UHGV virus genome: UHGV-0212520
Direction: 5' to 3' (one strand)
DNA length: 42,545 bases
Source of the DNA: a virus
The notes beneath the pieces are model-generated. The model did not search any database. It was given only the letters and a program-made list of their open reading frames with translations, and was not told the origin of the DNA. The translations under genes were made by a program, and so were the position numbers. Numbering within the stretch: position 1 is the first letter of the stretch; each line of letters starts with the position of its first letter. Shown here in pieces: positions 7,491 through 37,560 of this stretch.

Positions 7491-7519
7491 TTGCACACCC
7501 CAACATAATAGGATACTAT
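7491..7519 (+). promoter_or_regulatory. sigma70-like promoter, family B copy 1 (TTGCAC-N17-TACTAT)
   Basis: TTGCAC 7491-7496, spacer accccaacataatagga, TACTAT 7514-7519; spacer and flank conserved with 8821-8849 and the minus-strand copies at 19594-19622 and 28174-28202. Confidence 0.5.
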
Positions 7520-7553
7520 TCGCTTATCGGAACGAGACAGAGGAGCGAGGGTT

Positions 7554-16094: not shown

Positions 16095-17564
16095 ATGTTA
16101 ACTATGAACGGTCAGAATCAGGGTGTTAAGACAAAACACCGGGAATGGCTGCATCACTTCGATAAATGGCAGAAGGTGCGACACGCGCTGGAAGGCGACC
16201 TTATCCGTTACCTGCGCAACGTCGGTAAGAACGAACCAGACCAAACCCACGCAGCACAGCGGCAGGAAGAATACGAGAACGGCGCTATCTGCTACAACTT
16301 CGCTAAACGTACCCTGGCGGGGATGGTGGGATCGGTGATGCGCAAAGACCCTGAGCAGATTATTCCGCCTGAACTGGAGTACCTGTTACGCAACGCGGAC
16401 GGTTCCGGTGTCGGGCTGTGGCAGCACGCCCAGGATACGCTGATGGAGATTGACTCGGTGGGTCGCGGTGGGTTGCTGGTTGACGCCCCGGAGACAGCCG
16501 CGGCAACGGCAGCAGAACAGAACGCCGGTTTATTAAACCCGGTCATCGCGTTCTACACCGCGGAGAACATCATCAACTGGCGACTGACCCGCATAGGTTC
16601 CGTTAACCGAGTGACAATGGTTGTGTTGCGCGAAGTATGGGAGTACTCGGAACCGGGCGCAGAGTTTGAAACCAAGTTCGGCGAGCAATACCGCGTCCTT
16701 GACCTGATTGACGGCCGTTATCGCCAGCGCATTTACCGCTTCGATGCCGAAGGTGGTGCTCAGGATGAAGTAATCGAAATATTCCCGGAACTCGGTGAAC
16801 AGTTGCGCGGCAAAATCCCGTTCACGTTCATCGGGGCAAGCAACAACGACGCAACCATCGACGACGCACCTTTGCTGCCGTTGGCTGAGCTTAATATCGG
16901 ACATTTCCGTAACAGCGCGGACAATGAGGAGTCCAGTTTCGTTGTGGGCCAGCCCACTCTATTCATCGCCCCAGGTGGGAACATGAGCATGGAACAGTGG
17001 AAAGAGGCCAACCCTCACGGTGTCCGCATGGGTTCACGCTCGGGCCACAACATTGGCGAAGGTGGCAATGCGTTTCTGGTCCAGGCCGGAGAGAACAACC
17101 TCGCCAAACAGAACATGCTGGATAAAGAGAATCAGGCCATCCAGATTGGGGCGCAGCTTATCACCCCGACGCAGCAAATCACTGCGGAATCAGCCCGTCT
17201 GCAACGCGGTGCTGATACGTCAGTTATGGCGACAATCGCGCGTAACGTAAGCATGGCGTATACCGATGCGTTGCGCTGGGTGGCTGCGATGCTAGGGTTA
17301 CGTGAAGGTACAGAGGTTGAGTTCAAACTGAATATGGAGTTCTTCCTGCAACCTATGACCGCTCAGGACCGCGCCCAGTGGATGGCCGATATTAACGCGG
17401 GACTGTTACCTGCTACTGCTTACTATGCTGCGTTGCGCAAGGCGGGTGTAACTGACTGGACCGATGAGGACATACAGAGCGCTATCGAAGACGCACCGTT
17501 GCCGTTAGGTGCTGTAGCGCAGGTATCTGGAGCGATTCCTCAGTCGGCGCAACAACAGGAGTAA
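16095..17564 (+). CDS. Portal protein
   Basis: 489 aa directly downstream of terL and upstream of head morphogenesis gene. Confidence 0.75.
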   Translation: MLTMNGQNQGVKTKHREWLHHFDKWQKVRHALEGDLIRYLRNVGKNEPDQTHAAQRQEEYENGAICYNFAKRTLAGMVGSVMRKDPEQIIPPELEYLLRNADGSGVGLWQHAQDTLMEIDSVGRGGLLVDAPETAAATAAEQNAGLLNPVIAFYTAENIINWRLTRIGSVNRVTMVVLREVWEYSEPGAEFETKFGEQYRVLDLIDGRYRQRIYRFDAEGGAQDEVIEIFPELGEQLRGKIPFTFIGASNNDATIDDAPLLPLAELNIGHFRNSADNEESSFVVGQPTLFIAPGGNMSMEQWKEANPHGVRMGSRSGHNIGEGGNAFLVQAGENNLAKQNMLDKENQAIQIGAQLITPTQQITAESARLQRGADTSVMATIARNVSMAYTDALRWVAAMLGLREGTEVEFKLNMEFFLQPMTAQDRAQWMADINAGLLPATAYYAALRKAGVTDWTDEDIQSAIEDAPLPLGAVAQVSGAIPQSAQQQE

Positions 17565-17596
17565 AGAAAAAGGCCCCGTTAAGGGGCCTTAATTTC
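17565..17596. terminator. Bidirectional intrinsic terminator (AAGGCCCC-N5-GGGGCCTT family)
   Basis: aaaaaggccccgttaaggggccttaattt; A-tract upstream and T-tract downstream. Confidence 0.65.
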
Positions 17597-17804
17597 AATA
17601 CCAGTGTTCTAGCTCTTCCGCTATAGCCTTGTTGTACGTGTCTTGTGACATGCTCGCGATAAGTAACAAATCTATATTGTTATCGAATCCGAATATCTCG
17701 ACGGTGTTACGGTAGTCGTAAGCCGCGTTAAACGCGTCCTTCTCAGTGAAACCATTATAGATAAATGCGTATATTAATTTGCCGACGTCTAACTTCATTT
17801 TCAC
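17595..17804 (-). CDS. Hypothetical protein, single-gene minus-strand insertion between portal and head-morphogenesis genes
   Basis: 69 aa; ATG at 17804 with RBS AGGAG; candidate promoter TTGATT-N16-TAATAT on minus strand at about 17836-17868. Confidence 0.5.
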   Translation of the reverse strand: MKMKLDVGKLIYAFIYNGFTEKDAFNAAYDYRNTVEIFGFDNNIDLLLIASMSQDTYNKAIAEELEHWY

Positions 17805-17884
17805 GCTCCTGTTTGGTTTACATGGCTAGTGTCATATTATTCTGCTAATAGTTCAAATCAACTTCTTAATCGAGACGATAAAAT

Positions 17885-18928
17885 ATGAGCTTACTTACAT
17901 CCCTAATCAGCCACCAGATTTGGCTGCAACGCACCGCATCGGGCGAAGTGAAAGACCTTGCGCCTTTCATTAAGGAGATGCGGGACGAAATCAAACGGCA
18001 GGTGCTGCTGTTCGGTGACGATGGGCGTAGCACCGCGCGACTGAATAAACTGTTACGCGACCTGGAAGAAGCACTGAGCGGACTTACGGGCGACTGGCAA
18101 ACAAAGCTGACGGAAGACCTTAAGGAACTGGCGGAGTATGAAGCAGAGTGGAACGTAAAAACGCTGACGGCTAACGTTAACGCGGAATTTGTTACACCCG
18201 CCGCCGAGCAGGTGTGGTCCGCCGCCGAGTTTCAGCCTCTGTCGCTAAGCGACAAGCCTGTCGATTTCACCAAGCTGATGTCGGACTGGGGTGAAACGGA
18301 GGTTGCGCGCCTGGTAACTGGTGTTAAGATGGGTTTCGTACAAGGGCAAACCACACGGCAGATTGTTAAGAATGTTGTAGGCGCTGGCGGACTGGCCGAC
18401 ATCTCAGAACGTAACGCAGCTACCGTAATCCGCACCGCGCTGTCGCACGTATCCAACGAAGCCCGTAACGAGACGTACCGCCAGAACGACGACATCATCG
18501 AGAAATACGAATGGGTATCAACGCTGGACAGCCGTACCAGTACGATTTGCAGAGCCAGAGACGGAATGACGTGGGAAATCGGTAAAGGGCCGATGCCCCC
18601 CGCCCATCCGAACTGTCGATCGTGCACGGCACCGGTAATCAGTTCAGAGTTCGATTTCCTGGATAAAGGCGCAAAACGCGCGGCTAAGGGCGCGGACGGC
18701 GGGACTCAGGTAAGCGCGGACACCACTTACTACGAGTTCCTTAAACAACAACCGGCGTGGTTTATCGACGAGGCCATCGGCCCTGTTCGCGGTAAGATTT
18801 TCCGCGACAGCGGTATATCGCCAGAGGAGTTTCGCGTAATATCTGTAGATGGTTTCGGGAATCCGCTAACGCTTAAGCAGATGGCGGAACTCGATAAACG
18901 TGTTGCTGATTATCTGAAAGGGGAATAA
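17885..18928 (+). CDS. Head morphogenesis protein (Mu gpF / SPP1 gp7-like)
   Basis: 347 aa; C-terminal WVSTLDSRTSTICRARDGMTWEIGKGPMPPAHPNCRSC matches the conserved minor head protein motif; follows portal. Confidence 0.7.
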   Translation: MSLLTSLISHQIWLQRTASGEVKDLAPFIKEMRDEIKRQVLLFGDDGRSTARLNKLLRDLEEALSGLTGDWQTKLTEDLKELAEYEAEWNVKTLTANVNAEFVTPAAEQVWSAAEFQPLSLSDKPVDFTKLMSDWGETEVARLVTGVKMGFVQGQTTRQIVKNVVGAGGLADISERNAATVIRTALSHVSNEARNETYRQNDDIIEKYEWVSTLDSRTSTICRARDGMTWEIGKGPMPPAHPNCRSCTAPVISSEFDFLDKGAKRAAKGADGGTQVSADTTYYEFLKQQPAWFIDEAIGPVRGKIFRDSGISPEEFRVISVDGFGNPLTLKQMAELDKRVADYLKGE

Positions 18929-19389
18929 TGATGGGCTTTTTCAAAGTAACTGATGCACCGTCGCGCCGCGTAGTCCAGTACGCCCGCGTGTCTGGCTCTG
19001 GCGAGAACGTTGTGTTTATTGAGGATGAAAGTGTACTCGGCACACCTGTGGACGATATGCCTTTTGCAGATAAAACCGGTATTGCACTACCCGCAGCGGG
19101 TATGCTTTACGAGATTCCGTATCTGGCGGACGCAGGCGATGTGTATTTCTCTGTGCAACCGAAAGACGCTGAACTGGCAGACGGCAGCGCAACTATCACT
19201 GTCGAAGTTAAGGCTGGCAAAGCGCCGTATGCTCTTACCTGGTACAAAGACGGTAAGGAAGTGGTCAACGCCCCTGAAGAGGCTTTGTCTCTGACGGTTA
19301 ACGCAGTCGGTGAATACTTCGTTAAAGTTACCGATGCCGGTGGTGTAGAGGCCGTCAGTAAAGTGGCGAAGGTCACTAAGCCTGAATGA
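18928..19389 (+). CDS. Ig-like domain protein (possible capsid or tail decoration)
   Basis: 153 aa; YALTWYKDGKEVV...GEYFVKVTDAGG resembles bacterial Ig-like domains; similar segment in 22336-22677. Confidence 0.5.
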   Translation: MMGFFKVTDAPSRRVVQYARVSGSGENVVFIEDESVLGTPVDDMPFADKTGIALPAAGMLYEIPYLADAGDVYFSVQPKDAELADGSATITVEVKAGKAPYALTWYKDGKEVVNAPEEALSLTVNAVGEYFVKVTDAGGVEAVSKVAKVTKPE

Positions 19390-19390
19390 T

Positions 19391-19418
19391 AAAAGGCCCC
19401 AAATGGGGCCTTAGTTTT
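19391..19418. terminator. Bidirectional intrinsic terminator (AAGGCCCC-N4-GGGGCCTT family)
   Basis: aaaaggccccaaatggggccttagtttt. Confidence 0.65.
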
Positions 19419-19542
19419 ATGTTAAGCTGAGTCTTTCTGCCCACTCAAGCATCACCTTTTTAATGCGTGAGTCGGGGGCGTCTCTCCACGCTTTACGGAT
19501 AACCGCAGCTCGACATTTATTTTTAAGAGGTGCGTAGTTCAT
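19417..19542 (-). CDS. Small hypothetical protein (41 aa) driven by promoter B3
   Basis: ATG 19542 on minus strand, translation MNYAPLKNKCRAAVIRKAWRDAPDSRIKKVMLEWAERLSLT; ends at the terminator; weak RBS. Confidence 0.3.
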   Translation of the reverse strand: MNYAPLKNKCRAAVIRKAWRDAPDSRIKKVMLEWAERLSLT

Positions 19543-19593
19543 TTTAAATATTCCCGATTTGATGGATTAAACATGTTGTGTGTGTTGAAATGA

Positions 19594-19622
19594 ATAGTAC
19601 CCTATTGTATTGGTGTCTGCAA
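19594..19622 (-). promoter_or_regulatory. sigma70-like promoter, family B copy 3 (TTGCAG-N17-TACTAT on minus strand)
   Basis: Reverse complement: TTGCAG acaccaatacaataggg TACTAT tcattt; near-identical to 28174-28202. Confidence 0.5.
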
Positions 19623-19674
19623 ACTATTTATTTACCTATTCCAGTTATTCCACCGAATTGTAAATGTTAGAATA

Positions 19675-19690
19675 AACTATTCGAATAGTT
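19675..19690. promoter_or_regulatory. Perfect 16-bp palindrome AACTATTCGAATAGTT overlapping the -35 of the 19689 promoter
   Basis: aactattcgaatagtt reads identically on both strands; contains the ACTATTC motif found at the family B -10 regions. Confidence 0.5.
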
Positions 19691-19717
19691 GACTTTTCAC
19701 TAAAAATGTGCTAAGCT
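19689..19717 (+). promoter_or_regulatory. sigma70-like promoter with extended -10 (TTGACT-N17-TGcTAAGCT)
   Basis: TTGACT 19689-19694, 17-nt spacer ending in TGc, TAAGCT 19712-19717. Confidence 0.4.
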
Positions 19718-19724
19718 CCACCTG

Positions 19725-19895
19725 AGCTTGTGAAGTATGAACAAGCGACCGCGGCGCGGGCAGGTAACGGAGCGGGACGTAAGTCCTGAGTGTAGTTACG
19801 CTGACGCGTTCGGAAGGGCCATACTCTATTGCTTGTGTAAAAAGTAACAGGTTTACTGAGATTACGCCGTTTCTATGTTTAAATGATAAGGCCTA
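19725..19895 (+). ncRNA. Candidate small RNA or structured leader between promoter 19689 and terminator 19896
   Basis: About 170-200 nt transcribed interval with no ORF that has an RBS (only a 36-codon ATG ORF at 19737-19847 without SD); GC-rich internal inverted repeats (gcttgt/acaagc, ccgcg/cgcgg). Confidence 0.25.
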
Positions 19896-19922
19896 GCGCC
19901 CCGCTTTAAGGCGGGGCTTTAC
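19896..19922 (+). terminator. Intrinsic terminator-like hairpin upstream of the spanin genes
   Basis: gccccgc-tttaag-gcggggc followed by tttactt. Confidence 0.5.
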
Positions 19923-19942
19923 TTATCGAGAAAGGGGGAAAC

Positions 19943-20332
19943 ATGAATCTTAAAGCAACTGTCGTAGCGGGAGCGTGTTTCATCATCCTGGCCCACGCAC
20001 ACGGCGTCTACCAGTACCGCATCGGCTGGAACGAAGGCCGGGCGAATCTCGTTTCGCAGCAACAGCAGAAAGCACAGGCTGAGTTCGCGAAGAAAACACA
20101 ACGGCAGCAGCAGGATGAATCAAAGGCCGCAGCCGCTGACAACGAAGGTAAGACGAAATCAGAGGTGATTACCCGTGAAGTCGTTAAGTACATTAAAACG
20201 CCTGGTCGCAGCGTGTGCACTTTTGACCCTGAGCGCGTGCAGCTCAAGTCCCGCGCCGTCGTCAACGCCAATTCCATCCCCGGATACGATGATGATGCAG
20301 CCGCCGTGCAAACTGGCAGCGCCAAGCAGTGA
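19943..20332 (+). CDS. Rz: i-spanin (Rz-like)
   Basis: 129 aa; N-terminal TM segment, Q/E-rich coiled-coil middle, RBS AGGGGGA; lipoprotein gene in +1 frame within its 3' half. Confidence 0.65.
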   Translation: MNLKATVVAGACFIILAHAHGVYQYRIGWNEGRANLVSQQQQKAQAEFAKKTQRQQQDESKAAAADNEGKTKSEVITREVVKYIKTPGRSVCTFDPERVQLKSRAVVNANSIPGYDDDAAAVQTGSAKQ

Positions 20333-26363: not shown

Positions 26364-26392
26364 ACTAAGGCCCCTTTCGGGGCCTTTTTCTT
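26364..26392. terminator. Bidirectional intrinsic terminator (AAGGCCCC-N4-GGGGCCTT family)
   Basis: ctaaggcccctttcggggcctttttc; T-tracts on both strands. Confidence 0.7.
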
Positions 26393-26549
26393 ATTCCTTC
26401 AATTGCATAGGGTAGAAGTTAACGACTTCTCCTTTATCCCGAAGCCGTGAATATTCATCTAACGCATCTTCCTGGCTACTTACGGCATAGATATCATTCC
26501 ACTCGTCCCACTCTTTGTCGTATACGCGGATTACATATATTGTTTTCAT
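26391..26549 (-). CDS. Small hypothetical protein, last gene of minus-strand moron operon
   Basis: Probable start at ATG 26549 (MKTIYVIRVYDKEWDEW...), 52 aa; the track ORF extends to 26606 but would overlap the upstream gene. Confidence 0.35.
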   Translation of the reverse strand: MKTIYVIRVYDKEWDEWNDIYAVSSQEDALDEYSRLRDKGEVVNFYPMQLKE

Positions 26550-26556
26550 TACGGTC

Positions 26557-26787
26557 TCACTCATCAATGTTACTTCGATACTCCCGTAACTTCTCCAGAC
26601 TTTCAATCGCTTCCGCTAAGTCTGTTCCGGTGTCCTTGTGTCCGCGCAAGCCCATGCACAATAACTTCTTCAATGCGTGCTGTAACGCCGGGTCGCGGAT
26701 GTCGAAGGCGCGGAGCACATCATAAACGTCTACTGTCATAGTGCTGCCGTGGATGTTCGTCATTGTGCGGTTGTATTTTGAAGTCAT
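26557..26787 (-). CDS. Hypothetical protein in moron operon
   Basis: 76 aa; ATG overlaps stop of upstream phosphoesterase gene (ATGA). Confidence 0.5.
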   Translation of the reverse strand: MTSKYNRTMTNIHGSTMTVDVYDVLRAFDIRDPALQHALKKLLCMGLRGHKDTGTDLAEAIESLEKLREYRSNIDE

Positions 26788-27914
26788 CCCAGCATCTCCG
26801 GTGAAATAGTTAAACGTGCGACTTCGCCATATTCGGCGCTATAAGTAATTACATTTGCGCTACGGCCAGACATCCACCCACCGCGGGAAGCATATGCATC
26901 TTTCGCCGCGAGAGTGCGATGTTGTTCCACTACCATATTCCTACTTTCTACAATCTTTTGATGGTGGAGATGCCCGACATGTGCGTAACTGTACTCGCTT
27001 TCGCCAAATGCTTTTCTGAACTTAGCTATCATAATGGGTTCGACCACCTCAAACCGGCATTTATGCCCGTGCGTAAAGAACAGCGTCGTTTTGCCGTGCT
27101 GGACCATCTTGTAAACATCCGGCGACGTATCGACGAACACACGCGGCTCATTGTCATACAGCGTACTGAACATCTCAGCCAACCAAATCATGCCACTCTC
27201 GTCGTGATTTCCTTGCACGATAAGCAAGCGAACATTTTTGTGTTTAACCAGCGCCATATCAACAACACGGCGGACCATACGAATCATGTAGCGGACCAGT
27301 TTCTGATAGCGTGTGTCTGCGTCCAACACATGGCGCGACTCAGGGGTAACGGCATCCAGACTATCGAAGTGCGCGAAGTCACCTAACAGGTTAATAACTC
27401 CTGTCCCTGCATCCGGTGCTTTCTGAAACGCTGCATCGAACCAGCGAGAGAACAGGTCTTCCGCGATTTTCATATCCCAGTCGTCGCCGCTCTCGTCGGC
27501 CCAGGCCAGCATGCCAAGATGAAAATCAGATACCGTGTAAAGATTGAGTAGTTTATCATCGCGTTTAGCGCGGGCAGCTTTAACAGGCGCAACTGGCGTA
27601 ATCTCCGACTTCATGCCCTCGATTACGGCTTTCATCAACTCGACCTGACGTTCGGCGTCGGTGTCAGTCTTAACCCATTGCAGTTTAGTATTGCCAAACT
27701 CGTCCACCAGCGACGATGTACCTTTAATCTTGTAGCCGTCTGGTACAAGGTGGCTGACGTCACGTCCGTGGCCTACGCCTTTCTTAGCCAGCTTCGCTTT
27801 ACGGATGCGAATAACGCGGTCTGAGATGCCGTATTTACGGGCGATGTCGATATTCTTCACACCGGCGTTCAATTCTTCCTGCAACTGTTCGTCGGTTATT
27901 TTCTTCCGGGCCAT
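26784..27914 (-). CDS. N-terminal HTH domain fused to calcineurin-like metallophosphoesterase (SbcD/Mre11-like motif set)
   Basis: 376 aa; N-terminal ITDEQLQEELNAGVKNIDIARKYGISDRVIRIRKAKL (HTH); then SDFHLG (DxH), LLGDFAHFD (GDxxD-like), VQGNHDE (GNHD/E), FTHGHK, HVGHLHH (GHxH); RBS GAGGAA. Confidence 0.6.
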   Translation of the reverse strand: MARKKITDEQLQEELNAGVKNIDIARKYGISDRVIRIRKAKLAKKGVGHGRDVSHLVPDGYKIKGTSSLVDEFGNTKLQWVKTDTDAERQVELMKAVIEGMKSEITPVAPVKAARAKRDDKLLNLYTVSDFHLGMLAWADESGDDWDMKIAEDLFSRWFDAAFQKAPDAGTGVINLLGDFAHFDSLDAVTPESRHVLDADTRYQKLVRYMIRMVRRVVDMALVKHKNVRLLIVQGNHDESGMIWLAEMFSTLYDNEPRVFVDTSPDVYKMVQHGKTTLFFTHGHKCRFEVVEPIMIAKFRKAFGESEYSYAHVGHLHHQKIVESRNMVVEQHRTLAAKDAYASRGGWMSGRSANVITYSAEYGEVARLTISPEMLG

Positions 27915-27951
27915 GCTTATTCCTCGTGCTTAGGATTTGTCCTATACTAGC

Positions 27952-28143
27952 TCACTTCTCTTTAACATTCGAGTTGCAAGCCCAGATTAAAATAAATAAC
28001 CACGGCAACAGAACCCAGCCAAGAAACAGATTAGCCATGAATATCGCTAATTTCGCTTTATGGTTGCGGAAGTACGCAACCAGGAAAGGTGTGAAATAGG
28101 CGAGAAGTGCAAACAGAATTAAGGAAACCGGTAAACTGGACAT
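27952..28143 (-). CDS. Superinfection immunity protein (T4 Imm-like small membrane protein)
   Basis: YFTPFLVAYFRNHKAKLAIFMANLFLGWVLLPWLFILIWA matches the Imm_superinfect pattern (YFLPSI..F.R.H.N..AIF.LNL.LGWT..GW..ALIWA) from memory; start set to ATG 28143 (RBS AAGGGG); first gene after promoter B4. Confidence 0.6.
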   Translation of the reverse strand: MSSLPVSLILFALLAYFTPFLVAYFRNHKAKLAIFMANLFLGWVLLPWLFILIWACNSNVKEK

Positions 28144-28173
28144 TTTAAACCCCTTCATTGTTGGTGTAAGTGA

Positions 28174-28202
28174 ATAGTACCCTATTATATTGGGGTGCGC
28201 AA
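28174..28202 (-). promoter_or_regulatory. sigma70-like promoter, family B copy 4 (TTGCGC-N17-TACTAT on minus strand)
   Basis: Reverse complement: TTGCGC accccaatataataggg TACTAT tcactt; drives the imm/phosphoesterase operon. Confidence 0.55.
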
Positions 28203-37529: not shown

Positions 37530-37560
37530 AACAAGGCCCCAAAACGGGGCCTTTTCTCTA
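37530..37560. terminator. Bidirectional intrinsic terminator (AAGGCCCC-N5-GGGGCCTT family)
   Basis: caaggccccaaaacggggccttttctc. Confidence 0.65.

Follow-up and report, generated by a model that had tools for sequence, protein, structure and literature searches.

The 42,545-nucleotide viral genome UHGV-0212520, analysed over its whole length (hereafter the window), contains two short open reading frames (ORFs) on the minus strand of its head module, in gaps between genes that are read from the plus strand. ORF-A lies between the genes for a DUF4055 portal protein and a Phage_Mu_F head-morphogenesis protein, and ORF-B follows the gene for an Ig-like, Hoc-like decoration protein (Table 1); these neighbours are as described in the first-pass annotation, made by a model from the sequence alone, which had proposed the two ORFs as single-gene insertions of the moron type. 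The window represents a Kagunavirus-like siphophage with ~91% nucleotide identity to Escherichia phages EcoPhCCP1, M01 and SZH-1. About 100 Escherichia Kagunavirus genomes (Guernseyvirinae) match a 5.3-kb region around both ORFs at ~91% identity over at least 80% of its length, with Salmonella Jerseyviruses as more distant matches of the same region. We consider it likely that ORF-A and ORF-B are unrelated real genes in self-contained units of promoter, Shine-Dalgarno site, ORF and hairpin, inserted in reverse in inter-operon gaps of the head module that serve as polymorphic cargo slots, and that they encode accessory factors which are probably dispensable and expressed early.

The 41-amino-acid (aa) frame proposed for ORF-B is present as described, and ORF-A is also present but probably has 67 aa and not 69. 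The longer ORF-A frame (17595..17804, minus strand) starts at a GTG from which the AGGAG motif is just 1 nucleotide (nt) away, and this start was rejected in favour of ATG 17798, which is the likelier one because of the Shine-Dalgarno spacing and the lengths of the homologues: 12 of these have 67-68 aa and a shorter subfamily has 54-55 aa, and all begin at the methionine of ATG 17798. In a PHROGs scan ORF-A matches phrog_35937 with an E value of 5e-37. phiEap-2 and over 20 metagenomic Kagunavirus contigs carry homologues with 80-99% identity. The copy in Enterobacter phage phiEap-2 (ABY59_0200020, 80-82% identity) has the same position between portal and head-morphogenesis genes and the same orientation, in a phage of a different Guernseyvirinae genus. 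The 55-aa subfamily (43-54% identity) is found in Kagunavirus SZH-1, ST20, Shigella phage phiSD1 and Skatevirus-like Salmonella phages. In Skatevirus SeSz-2 the homologue is located in reverse between the tape-measure and tail genes, accompanied by TTGAAG-17-GATACT, GAGGG and a terminator hairpin; its protein differs from that of SZH-1 at 7 of 55 residues (~87% identity by alignment count), and this likeness across genera points to horizontal transfer. An exhaustive hidden Markov model search of 1.84 billion representatives with the ORF-A profile gave only six clusters at 50% identity, all consisting of small uncharacterised proteins. An alignment-based word-indexed search with ORF-A yielded nothing new beyond the 55-aa subfamily, few extra loci were gained from IMG/VR scans, and the ORF-A cassette of the window was found at the nucleotide level in no deposited phage. 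The product (7.8 kDa) is acidic, with an isoelectric point (pI) of 4.3 and a grand average of hydropathy (GRAVY) of -0.17, and its model shows four predicted helices at a predicted local distance difference test score (pLDDT) of 71. A plus-strand promoter-like site, GTGAAA-18-TATATT (9/12), is present at 17746-17775 within ORF-A, antisense to its 5' end, and is a candidate for restarting transcription of the head-morphogenesis gene past the hairpin.

ORF-B has a 100% identical, unannotated copy in EcoPhCCP1. Homologues with 47-76% identity occur in Salmonella phage 9NA (gp36), Bas81, gmqsjt-1, the Vequintavirinae phage FENT2 and several metagenomic phages; 9NA gp36 and Bas81_0019 show 65-68% identity over the full alignment and 71-74% in the local match, and a VIRKAW-DAP core is invariant across the homologues. 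In 9NA, Bas81-like phages, FENT2 and two other backbones, the homologue is preceded by a sigma-70 promoter scoring 9-11/12, of which the -10 element ends 47-51 nt before the ATG, and in at least three of these backbones (9NA, Bas81, L025) a hairpin follows on the 3' side. The product (4.8 kDa) is basic (pI 10.3, net charge +6, GRAVY -0.53) and is predicted to form a two-helix hairpin (pLDDT 90).

Comparison of both ORFs with homologues in other phage genera showed synonymous sites that are saturated or nearly so (pS 0.63-0.93), with much lower non-synonymous values (pN 0.11-0.39). For ORF-A against phiEap-2 the values are 0.93 and 0.11, and for ORF-B codon alignments with its homologues gave 0.63-0.89 and 0.21-0.39. 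In close pairs dN/dS is 0.11-0.13, except in one ORF-A pair, whose value of 0.61 derives from 11 changes. Conserved residues are distributed along the whole length of both proteins. Saturated synonymous change with a preserved protein sequence identifies ORF-A and ORF-B, by this codon-level test, as real protein genes under purifying selection. The first-pass annotation had made its proposal dependent on conservation in relatives that share the flanking genes, and such conservation was found for both.

That the two genes are insertions, as had been proposed, was confirmed by comparing presence and absence in related phages. Relatives with ~91% identical flanks differ in ORF-A and ORF-B content and have slots that are empty or hold unrelated genes, and the G+C content is ~0.40 in both cassettes, compared to 0.51 genome-wide. 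The slot between portal and head-morphogenesis genes is empty (36-70 bp intergenic) in K1H, Bas75, EM1 and L019, and in 13 of the 16 rows of a spread survey in which both flanks were covered. It holds a 217-aa minus-strand gene in EcoPhCCP1, a 173-aa gene in SHAK7693 and fBC-Eco01, and the 55-aa ORF-A relative in SZH-1. Comparison of 16 loci at the slot after the Ig-like gene revealed at least nine different minus-strand cargos, while four loci were empty; empty slots with conserved flanks include those of K1G, FSL SP-101, ER11 and L015. Besides ORF-B, the cargos of this second slot comprise orphans of 63, 67, 70 and 93 aa and a 179-aa protein, a D12 Dam methylase, a pair of genes for 92 and 62 aa, and a 114-aa lipoprotein-like protein accompanied by a 33-aa peptide. 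Out of 179 deposited records with the conserved right-hand region, 115 also carry the promoter block described below and thus have a filled second slot, and only one of these relatives, EcoPhCCP1, has ORF-B. Contigs with ORF-A show four different states of the second slot, and in contigs with ORF-B the portal slot is empty; the two genes occur independently of one another.

The database names of slot cargos (L001, L009, L010) are inconsistent and unsupported. The 217-aa cargo is annotated as 'amidase' and gave only a sub-threshold KilA-N match (E 3e-4), and the 173-aa cargo carries the names 'RusA-like resolvase', 'DNA polymerase III sliding clamp' and 'beta clamp domain protein' with only a sub-threshold match to DNA_pol3_beta_2 (E 0.006).

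A shared terminator-like hairpin marks one end of the slots. The first-pass annotation had placed each ORF next to a bidirectional GC hairpin, and both hairpins are real (GC-rich stems of 8 bp, -15.5 to -20.7 kcal/mol, a stability equalled by 0 of 200 shuffles), each situated exclusively 3' of its ORF, at a convergent junction. The one at 19393-19412 is terminator-like on both strands, but the one at 17570-17590 resembles an intrinsic terminator on the minus strand only, with the tail TTTTCTTTACT, its weaker T-tract on the plus strand having failed the T-run rule of the scan. The window has four exact copies of the pattern (17570, 19393, 26367 and 37533) against 0 expected, always where genes converge. 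In all filled slots that were compared, the hairpin at the end is of the AAGGCCCC-N4-5-GGGGCCTT type or a slight variant of it (AAGGCCTC..GAGGCCTT or ..GGGGCTTT). At the portal slot this type is found 3' of the portal gene wherever the slot is filled, with the AAGGCCTC..GAGGCCTT stem in two relatives, and after the Ig-like gene it is found in 12 of 12 filled loci (one or two flanking-base variants). In its place, GCCCCGAAAGGGGC is present in all portal-slot empties compared and in three of the four second-slot empties, the empty second slot of L015 carrying a variant of the filled type. Judged by its sequence, the hairpin is a generic terminator at all four convergent junctions examined in the genome and is not particular to ORF-A and ORF-B.

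The other end of the slots carries promoter-like sequences, which differ between the two cassettes. For ORF-A, the pattern TTGAA(C/G)-17-GAnAnT is found 29-32 nt before the start codon in five of five homologous cassettes, including that of Skatevirus SeSz-2, and a GATTTGAA element in this region is conserved; the cassette is without the repeated promoter block that precedes ORF-B. That block, of ~45 nt and with GAATAGTACCCTATT, is common to 12 of 12 filled second slots irrespective of the cargo, reading TT(T)GCA, 17-18 nt and TACTAT on the minus strand, with a palindrome AATAGGnnACTATT spanning the -10 element. In other phages the same block precedes the 173-aa gene that fills the portal slot, and it is identical across unrelated cargos and across both slots. 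Since it is common to unrelated cargos, the promoter block of ORF-B belongs to the slot and not to the gene. A reading of the block based on TATAAT was discarded because it is without a conserved -35 element at 17 nt. Three strict copies are present in the window, whereas a relaxed motif gave 13 copies against 0.64 expected, most of the strong ones with a small ORF 13-75 nt downstream.

Members of a TTGCAC-17-TACTAT family, with the palindrome AATAGGnnACTATT over the -10 element, are located at 699, 3860, 3905, 7507 and 8837 (plus-strand firing) and at 19592, 28172 and 39835 (minus-strand firing), which suggests that one phage-encoded regulator may control the whole promoter set. The same motif corresponds to seven PHIRE 'phage promoters' in fBC-Eco01, which were ascribed by the authors to a phage RNA polymerase (PMC9825357).

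Table 1 Positions of the two ORFs, their signals and neighbouring features in the window
Feature	Position	Strand	Remarks
DUF4055 portal	16095-17564	+	left of ORF-A slot
GC hairpin AAGGCCCCGTTAAGGGGCCTT	17570..17590	.	between portal stop and ORF-A stop
ORF-A coding sequence	17595..17798	-	67 aa, ATG 17798; phrog_35937 (function unknown)
Shine-Dalgarno AGGAG	17806..17810	-	7 nt upstream of ATG 17798; read from sequence
ORF-A promoter-like region	17828..17861	-	TTGAAC (17856-17851), 17 nt, GACACT (17833-17828); 7-8/12, chance level alone
ORF-A alternative, overlapping	17828..17861 region	-	TTGATT (17861-17856), 16 nt, TAATAT (17839-17834)
Phage_Mu_F head-morphogenesis protein	17885-18928	+	between the two slots
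Ig-like/Hoc-like decoration protein	18928-19389	+	flank of ORF-B slot
GC hairpin AAGGCCCCAAATGGGGCCTT	19393..19412	.	between Ig-like gene stop and ORF-B stop; terminator-like on both strands
ORF-B coding sequence	19417..19542	-	41 aa, ATG; homologue of Salmonella phage 9NA gp36 and Bas81_0019
Slot promoter block	19590..19635	-	TTTGCA (19623-19618), 18 nt, TACTAT (19599-19594); palindrome AATAGGGTACTATT overlaps -10
i-spanin	19943-20332	+	right of ORF-B slot
Promoter block copy	7500..7521	+	heads run of small ORFs from 7554 on (presumed early region)
Promoter block copy	28172..28193	-	heads four-gene cluster, first gene Imm_superinfect protein (27952..28158)
Third hairpin copy	26367..26386	.	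ends four-gene minus-strand cluster (28158 to 26391), tail module
Fourth hairpin copy	37533..37553	.	convergent junction where structural genes end

From these direct observations (coding status, polymorphism, shared flanks and repeated motifs) we infer a scheme for expression timing, recombination and protein function. Host RNA polymerase, the enzyme assumed for this phage group, would start at the cassette promoter soon after infection. ORF-B would be driven by a copy of the block that also heads the small-ORF run and the superinfection-immunity cluster, and ORF-A by a promoter that travels with the gene. The presence of the block in front of the small-ORF region and the superinfection-immunity gene suggests early expression by the host polymerase under a common operator. 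Each unit would fire away from the next late gene, and the hairpin would prevent antisense read-through into the portal or Ig-like gene and would also end the plus-strand transcript. Cargo would be swapped by recombination in short conserved flanks, the hairpin on one side and the promoter block on the other, as suggested by the unrelated cargo between conserved flanks, the reuse of the block at two slots and the ~87% identity between the SZH-1 and SeSz-2 proteins. The products, acting in host takeover, counter-defence or exclusion, might bind a host or competitor macromolecule. That they are small early modulators of this kind is a tentative guess, and regulation of the phage's own promoters, or exclusion, is less likely.

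Several points weigh against the proposed cassette scheme. A consensus scan at 9/12 detected no minus-strand promoter upstream of ORF-A or ORF-B, and the best minus-strand matches score 8/12, a level reached by 61-77% of shuffled sequences; what stands of the minus-strand promoters proposed in the first-pass annotation is the conserved spacing in homologous cassettes and, for ORF-B, the repeated motif. The Shine-Dalgarno site of ORF-B is weak (GGGA, ~12 nt upstream). Expression of the two ORFs is a prediction, and the only indications of early timing are the shared block and the small-ORF character of the region that follows the 7500 copy. The palindrome over the -10 element could mean control by a phage factor, with middle instead of early timing, and recombination in the flanks is likewise deduced from sequence patterns. 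Concerning function, scans with Pfam, NCBIfam and PADLOC gave no family match for either protein, and PHROGs none for ORF-B, the exception being ORF-B with HTH_NDX, which at E 0.049 and 14 bits against a cutoff of 27 does not place it in this helix-turn-helix (HTH) family. Profile searches of the PDB yielded nothing for either protein, Foldseek searches against the PDB (both models) and BFVD (ORF-A) gave nothing below E 0.03, and no conserved partner gene was found.

Other searches were also negative. The PADLOC-DB defence profiles gave no match at E values up to 10, PDB sequence and fold searches gave no match with solved anti-defence proteins among the targets, and the single BFVD match of ORF-A is a member of its own family. 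Rfam and tRNA scans of the ORF-A/ORF-B region were empty, and literature searches produced no functional or transcriptomic data on Kagunavirus, Jerseyvirus or 9NA gp36.

Alternative explanations differ in how well they account for these data. The ORFs could be chance frames in AT-rich regulatory spacers of which the function lies in the late-operon hairpins and promoters alone; both are short and situated in low-GC intergenic DNA, ORF-B was left unannotated in EcoPhCCP1, and the 9/12 plus-strand promoter-like site lies inside ORF-A. This is nevertheless extremely improbable in view of the protein-level conservation across several unrelated phage backbones despite saturated synonymous change and the conserved start codon and Shine-Dalgarno site; moreover, a hairpin is kept in empty slots, so that the ORF DNA is unnecessary for termination. 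Classical morons, expressed from a prophage and altering the host, or small toxic effectors as the first-pass annotation suggested, would agree with the promoter-gene-terminator layout, the atypical composition and the patchy distribution. However, Kagunaviruses are lytic, glycan-dependent small siphoviruses (PMC11990801), and the close relative fBC-Eco01 was reported to lack integrase and lysogeny genes (PMC9825357). GTDB scans of 185,579 species-representative bacterial and archaeal genomes detected neither family, which argues against prophage or toxin-antitoxin roles. Furthermore, neither protein has a hydrophobic or transmembrane segment, GRAVY values and models indicating charged soluble helices, and matches to PADLOC or toxin families are lacking, which together make this explanation very improbable; nothing indicates a toxin. 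Two more specific candidates were rejected on these grounds, a membrane toxin or holin-like peptide (GRAVY -0.17 and -0.53, no hydrophobic helix) and a lysogenic-conversion gene (lytic backbone, no homologue in the 185,579 genomes).

One or both proteins may instead regulate the phage's own expression, for example if ORF-B binds DNA, RNA or RNA polymerase and thereby tunes the early-to-late switch. ORF-B is strongly basic and has the weak HTH_NDX match, it diverges from a conserved plus-strand promoter at 19690, with an upstream palindrome, at a distance of ~70 bp, and in other phages its homologue is often the first gene behind a strong promoter in early or replication regions. Yet nearly all Kagunaviruses that keep the conserved promoter region are without ORF-B, which means that it is not a required regulator, and with 41 aa and two helices it is short for a canonical helix-turn-helix protein and was found to belong to no DNA-binding family, so we regard this role as unlikely. 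A role in phage-phage competition by superinfection exclusion, and not against host defence or metabolism, is suggested by the occurrence of the same promoter block in front of the Imm_superinfect gene and by other second-slot cargos, among them a lipoprotein-signal protein accompanied by a small membrane peptide and a protein of 70 aa that has a hydrophobic helix at its N-terminus. Such membrane-type cargos resemble the known exclusion proteins Imm and Sp of T4 and Llp of T5. Known exclusion factors of this sort are membrane or periplasmic proteins, whereas ORF-A and ORF-B are soluble and cytoplasmic in character, and we consider exclusion by these two proteins quite improbable.

It is useful to compare the cassettes with known systems. 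In the moron concept of Juhala and Hendrix, developed for lambdoid and other tailed phages, an extra gene with atypical G+C content carries its own promoter and terminator. ORF-A and ORF-B are likewise extra genes between neighbours that are adjacent in related phages, occur in some relatives only, have a lower G+C content, and possess at the sequence level their own factor-independent terminator in the form of GC hairpins with minus-strand T-runs. The putative promoter of each consists of 8/12 matches, which by themselves are at chance level, with a position that is kept in all homologous cassettes and, for ORF-B, a repeated motif. In this structural sense of a solo, opposite-strand, patchy and AT-rich gene with a terminator, the label of moron cargo given by the first-pass annotation is appropriate. 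It does not hold in the prophage sense: with a lytic phage and no homologue among the bacterial genomes searched, there is no place for prophage expression or lysogenic conversion. A further difference is that the ORF-B promoter appears to be a resident, repeated feature of the slot and not a part of the imported gene.

A closer parallel is offered by the promoter-early stem-loop (PeSL) cassettes in the hyperplastic regions of T4-type phages (Arbiol et al. 2010, PMC2839356; Comeau et al. 2014, PMC4122927). As in those regions, repeated promoter and stem-loop terminator motifs flank small non-essential ORFans, and differences between close relatives map to the motifs, suggesting that recombination shuffles the cargo. 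The present phage is a small Guernseyvirinae siphovirus and not a T4-type myovirus, however, and the motif sequences are unrelated. Promoter and hairpin stand on opposite sides of the cargo instead of forming one contiguous composite element, and the slots, as predicted here, are isolated inverted units inside a structural operon and not long tandem arrays. The 9NA gp36 and Bas81_0019 genes are also oriented opposite to neighbouring head genes, with a sigma-70 promoter ~50 nt upstream, but unlike the solo ORF-B each is the first gene of a cluster of 3-6 opposite-strand genes. The ORF-A and ORF-B cassettes are thus of an ordinary kind, moron-like in structure and behaving like PeSL-bounded ORFans. 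As far as our searches show, the slot architecture in Guernseyvirinae has not been described explicitly, and it varies a theme that is familiar; databases already list both protein families as hypothetical. A more far-reaching idea is that Guernseyvirinae possess a plug-in expression system, in which fixed slots in the structural operon, composed of an operator-bearing promoter block and a bidirectional terminator, exchange ORFans among Kagunavirus, Jerseyvirus, Skatevirus and Nonanavirus, and that ORF-A and ORF-B are two previously uncharacterised families, with novel folds or targets, whose members act early in counter-defence or host takeover; this we regard as speculative and rather doubtful.

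Some observations concern the surroundings of the slots. The stretch from the ORF-B cassette to the i-spanin gene (19640-19945, plus strand) is 96-98% identical among Kagunaviruses and ~94% in Jerseyviruses, compared to 80-91% for its flanks. It contains a perfect palindrome ACTATTCGAATAGT at 19676-19689, which has the half-sites of the promoter-family palindrome AATAGGnnACTATT in inverted order, followed by the promoter-like sequence TTGACT-17-TGcTAAGCT (from 19690), then by a structured leader (~190 nt) and, directly before the spanin, scaffold and capsid genes, by a terminator (19898-19917). An annotated 36-aa ORF in this stretch (19737-19847) shows mostly non-synonymous changes, and in three phages its ATG frame is interrupted by the loss of 1 nt and restored by an upstream GTG start; no more than one compensatory base pair was observed, and the fold z-score is -2.0. 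The stretch could encode a small protein or a non-coding RNA, or could act as a leader-plus-terminator control comparable to the lambda late promoter and its 6S transcript. Another minus-strand cassette, the third and a larger one (26367-28193), lies between the major tail protein and tail chaperone genes, with the promoter block at 28172 on one side and the hairpin at 26367 on the other. It encodes the 68-aa Imm_superinfect protein (27952-28158), 76-aa and 71-aa orphans, and a 376-aa calcineurin-like phosphoesterase-like protein (26784-27914) with sub-threshold Metallophos matches and an N-terminal HTH-like region. According to locus L018 (1055-2914) and the annotations of H21 and H73, some relatives have an intein inside the Phage_Mu_F head-morphogenesis gene (619 aa compared to 347 aa) and others have an HNH homing endonuclease in the slot after the Ig-like gene, which indicates that selfish elements also target the head-module region.

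Phage genomes are already known to contain ORFan cassettes of patchy distribution that have a promoter and a terminator of their own, so that the current understanding is unchanged by these results. The slots are of use for phage engineering in that they mark positions at which a foreign gene is tolerated and, apparently, expressed, and the two genes described here are well delimited and naturally dispensable in a compact group of lytic coliphages that is already used for engineering and therapy. For Kagunaviruses, the variable cargo provides a short list of candidate counter-defence, exclusion and host-takeover factors, which can be tested in the Kagunavirus isolates of the BASEL collection.

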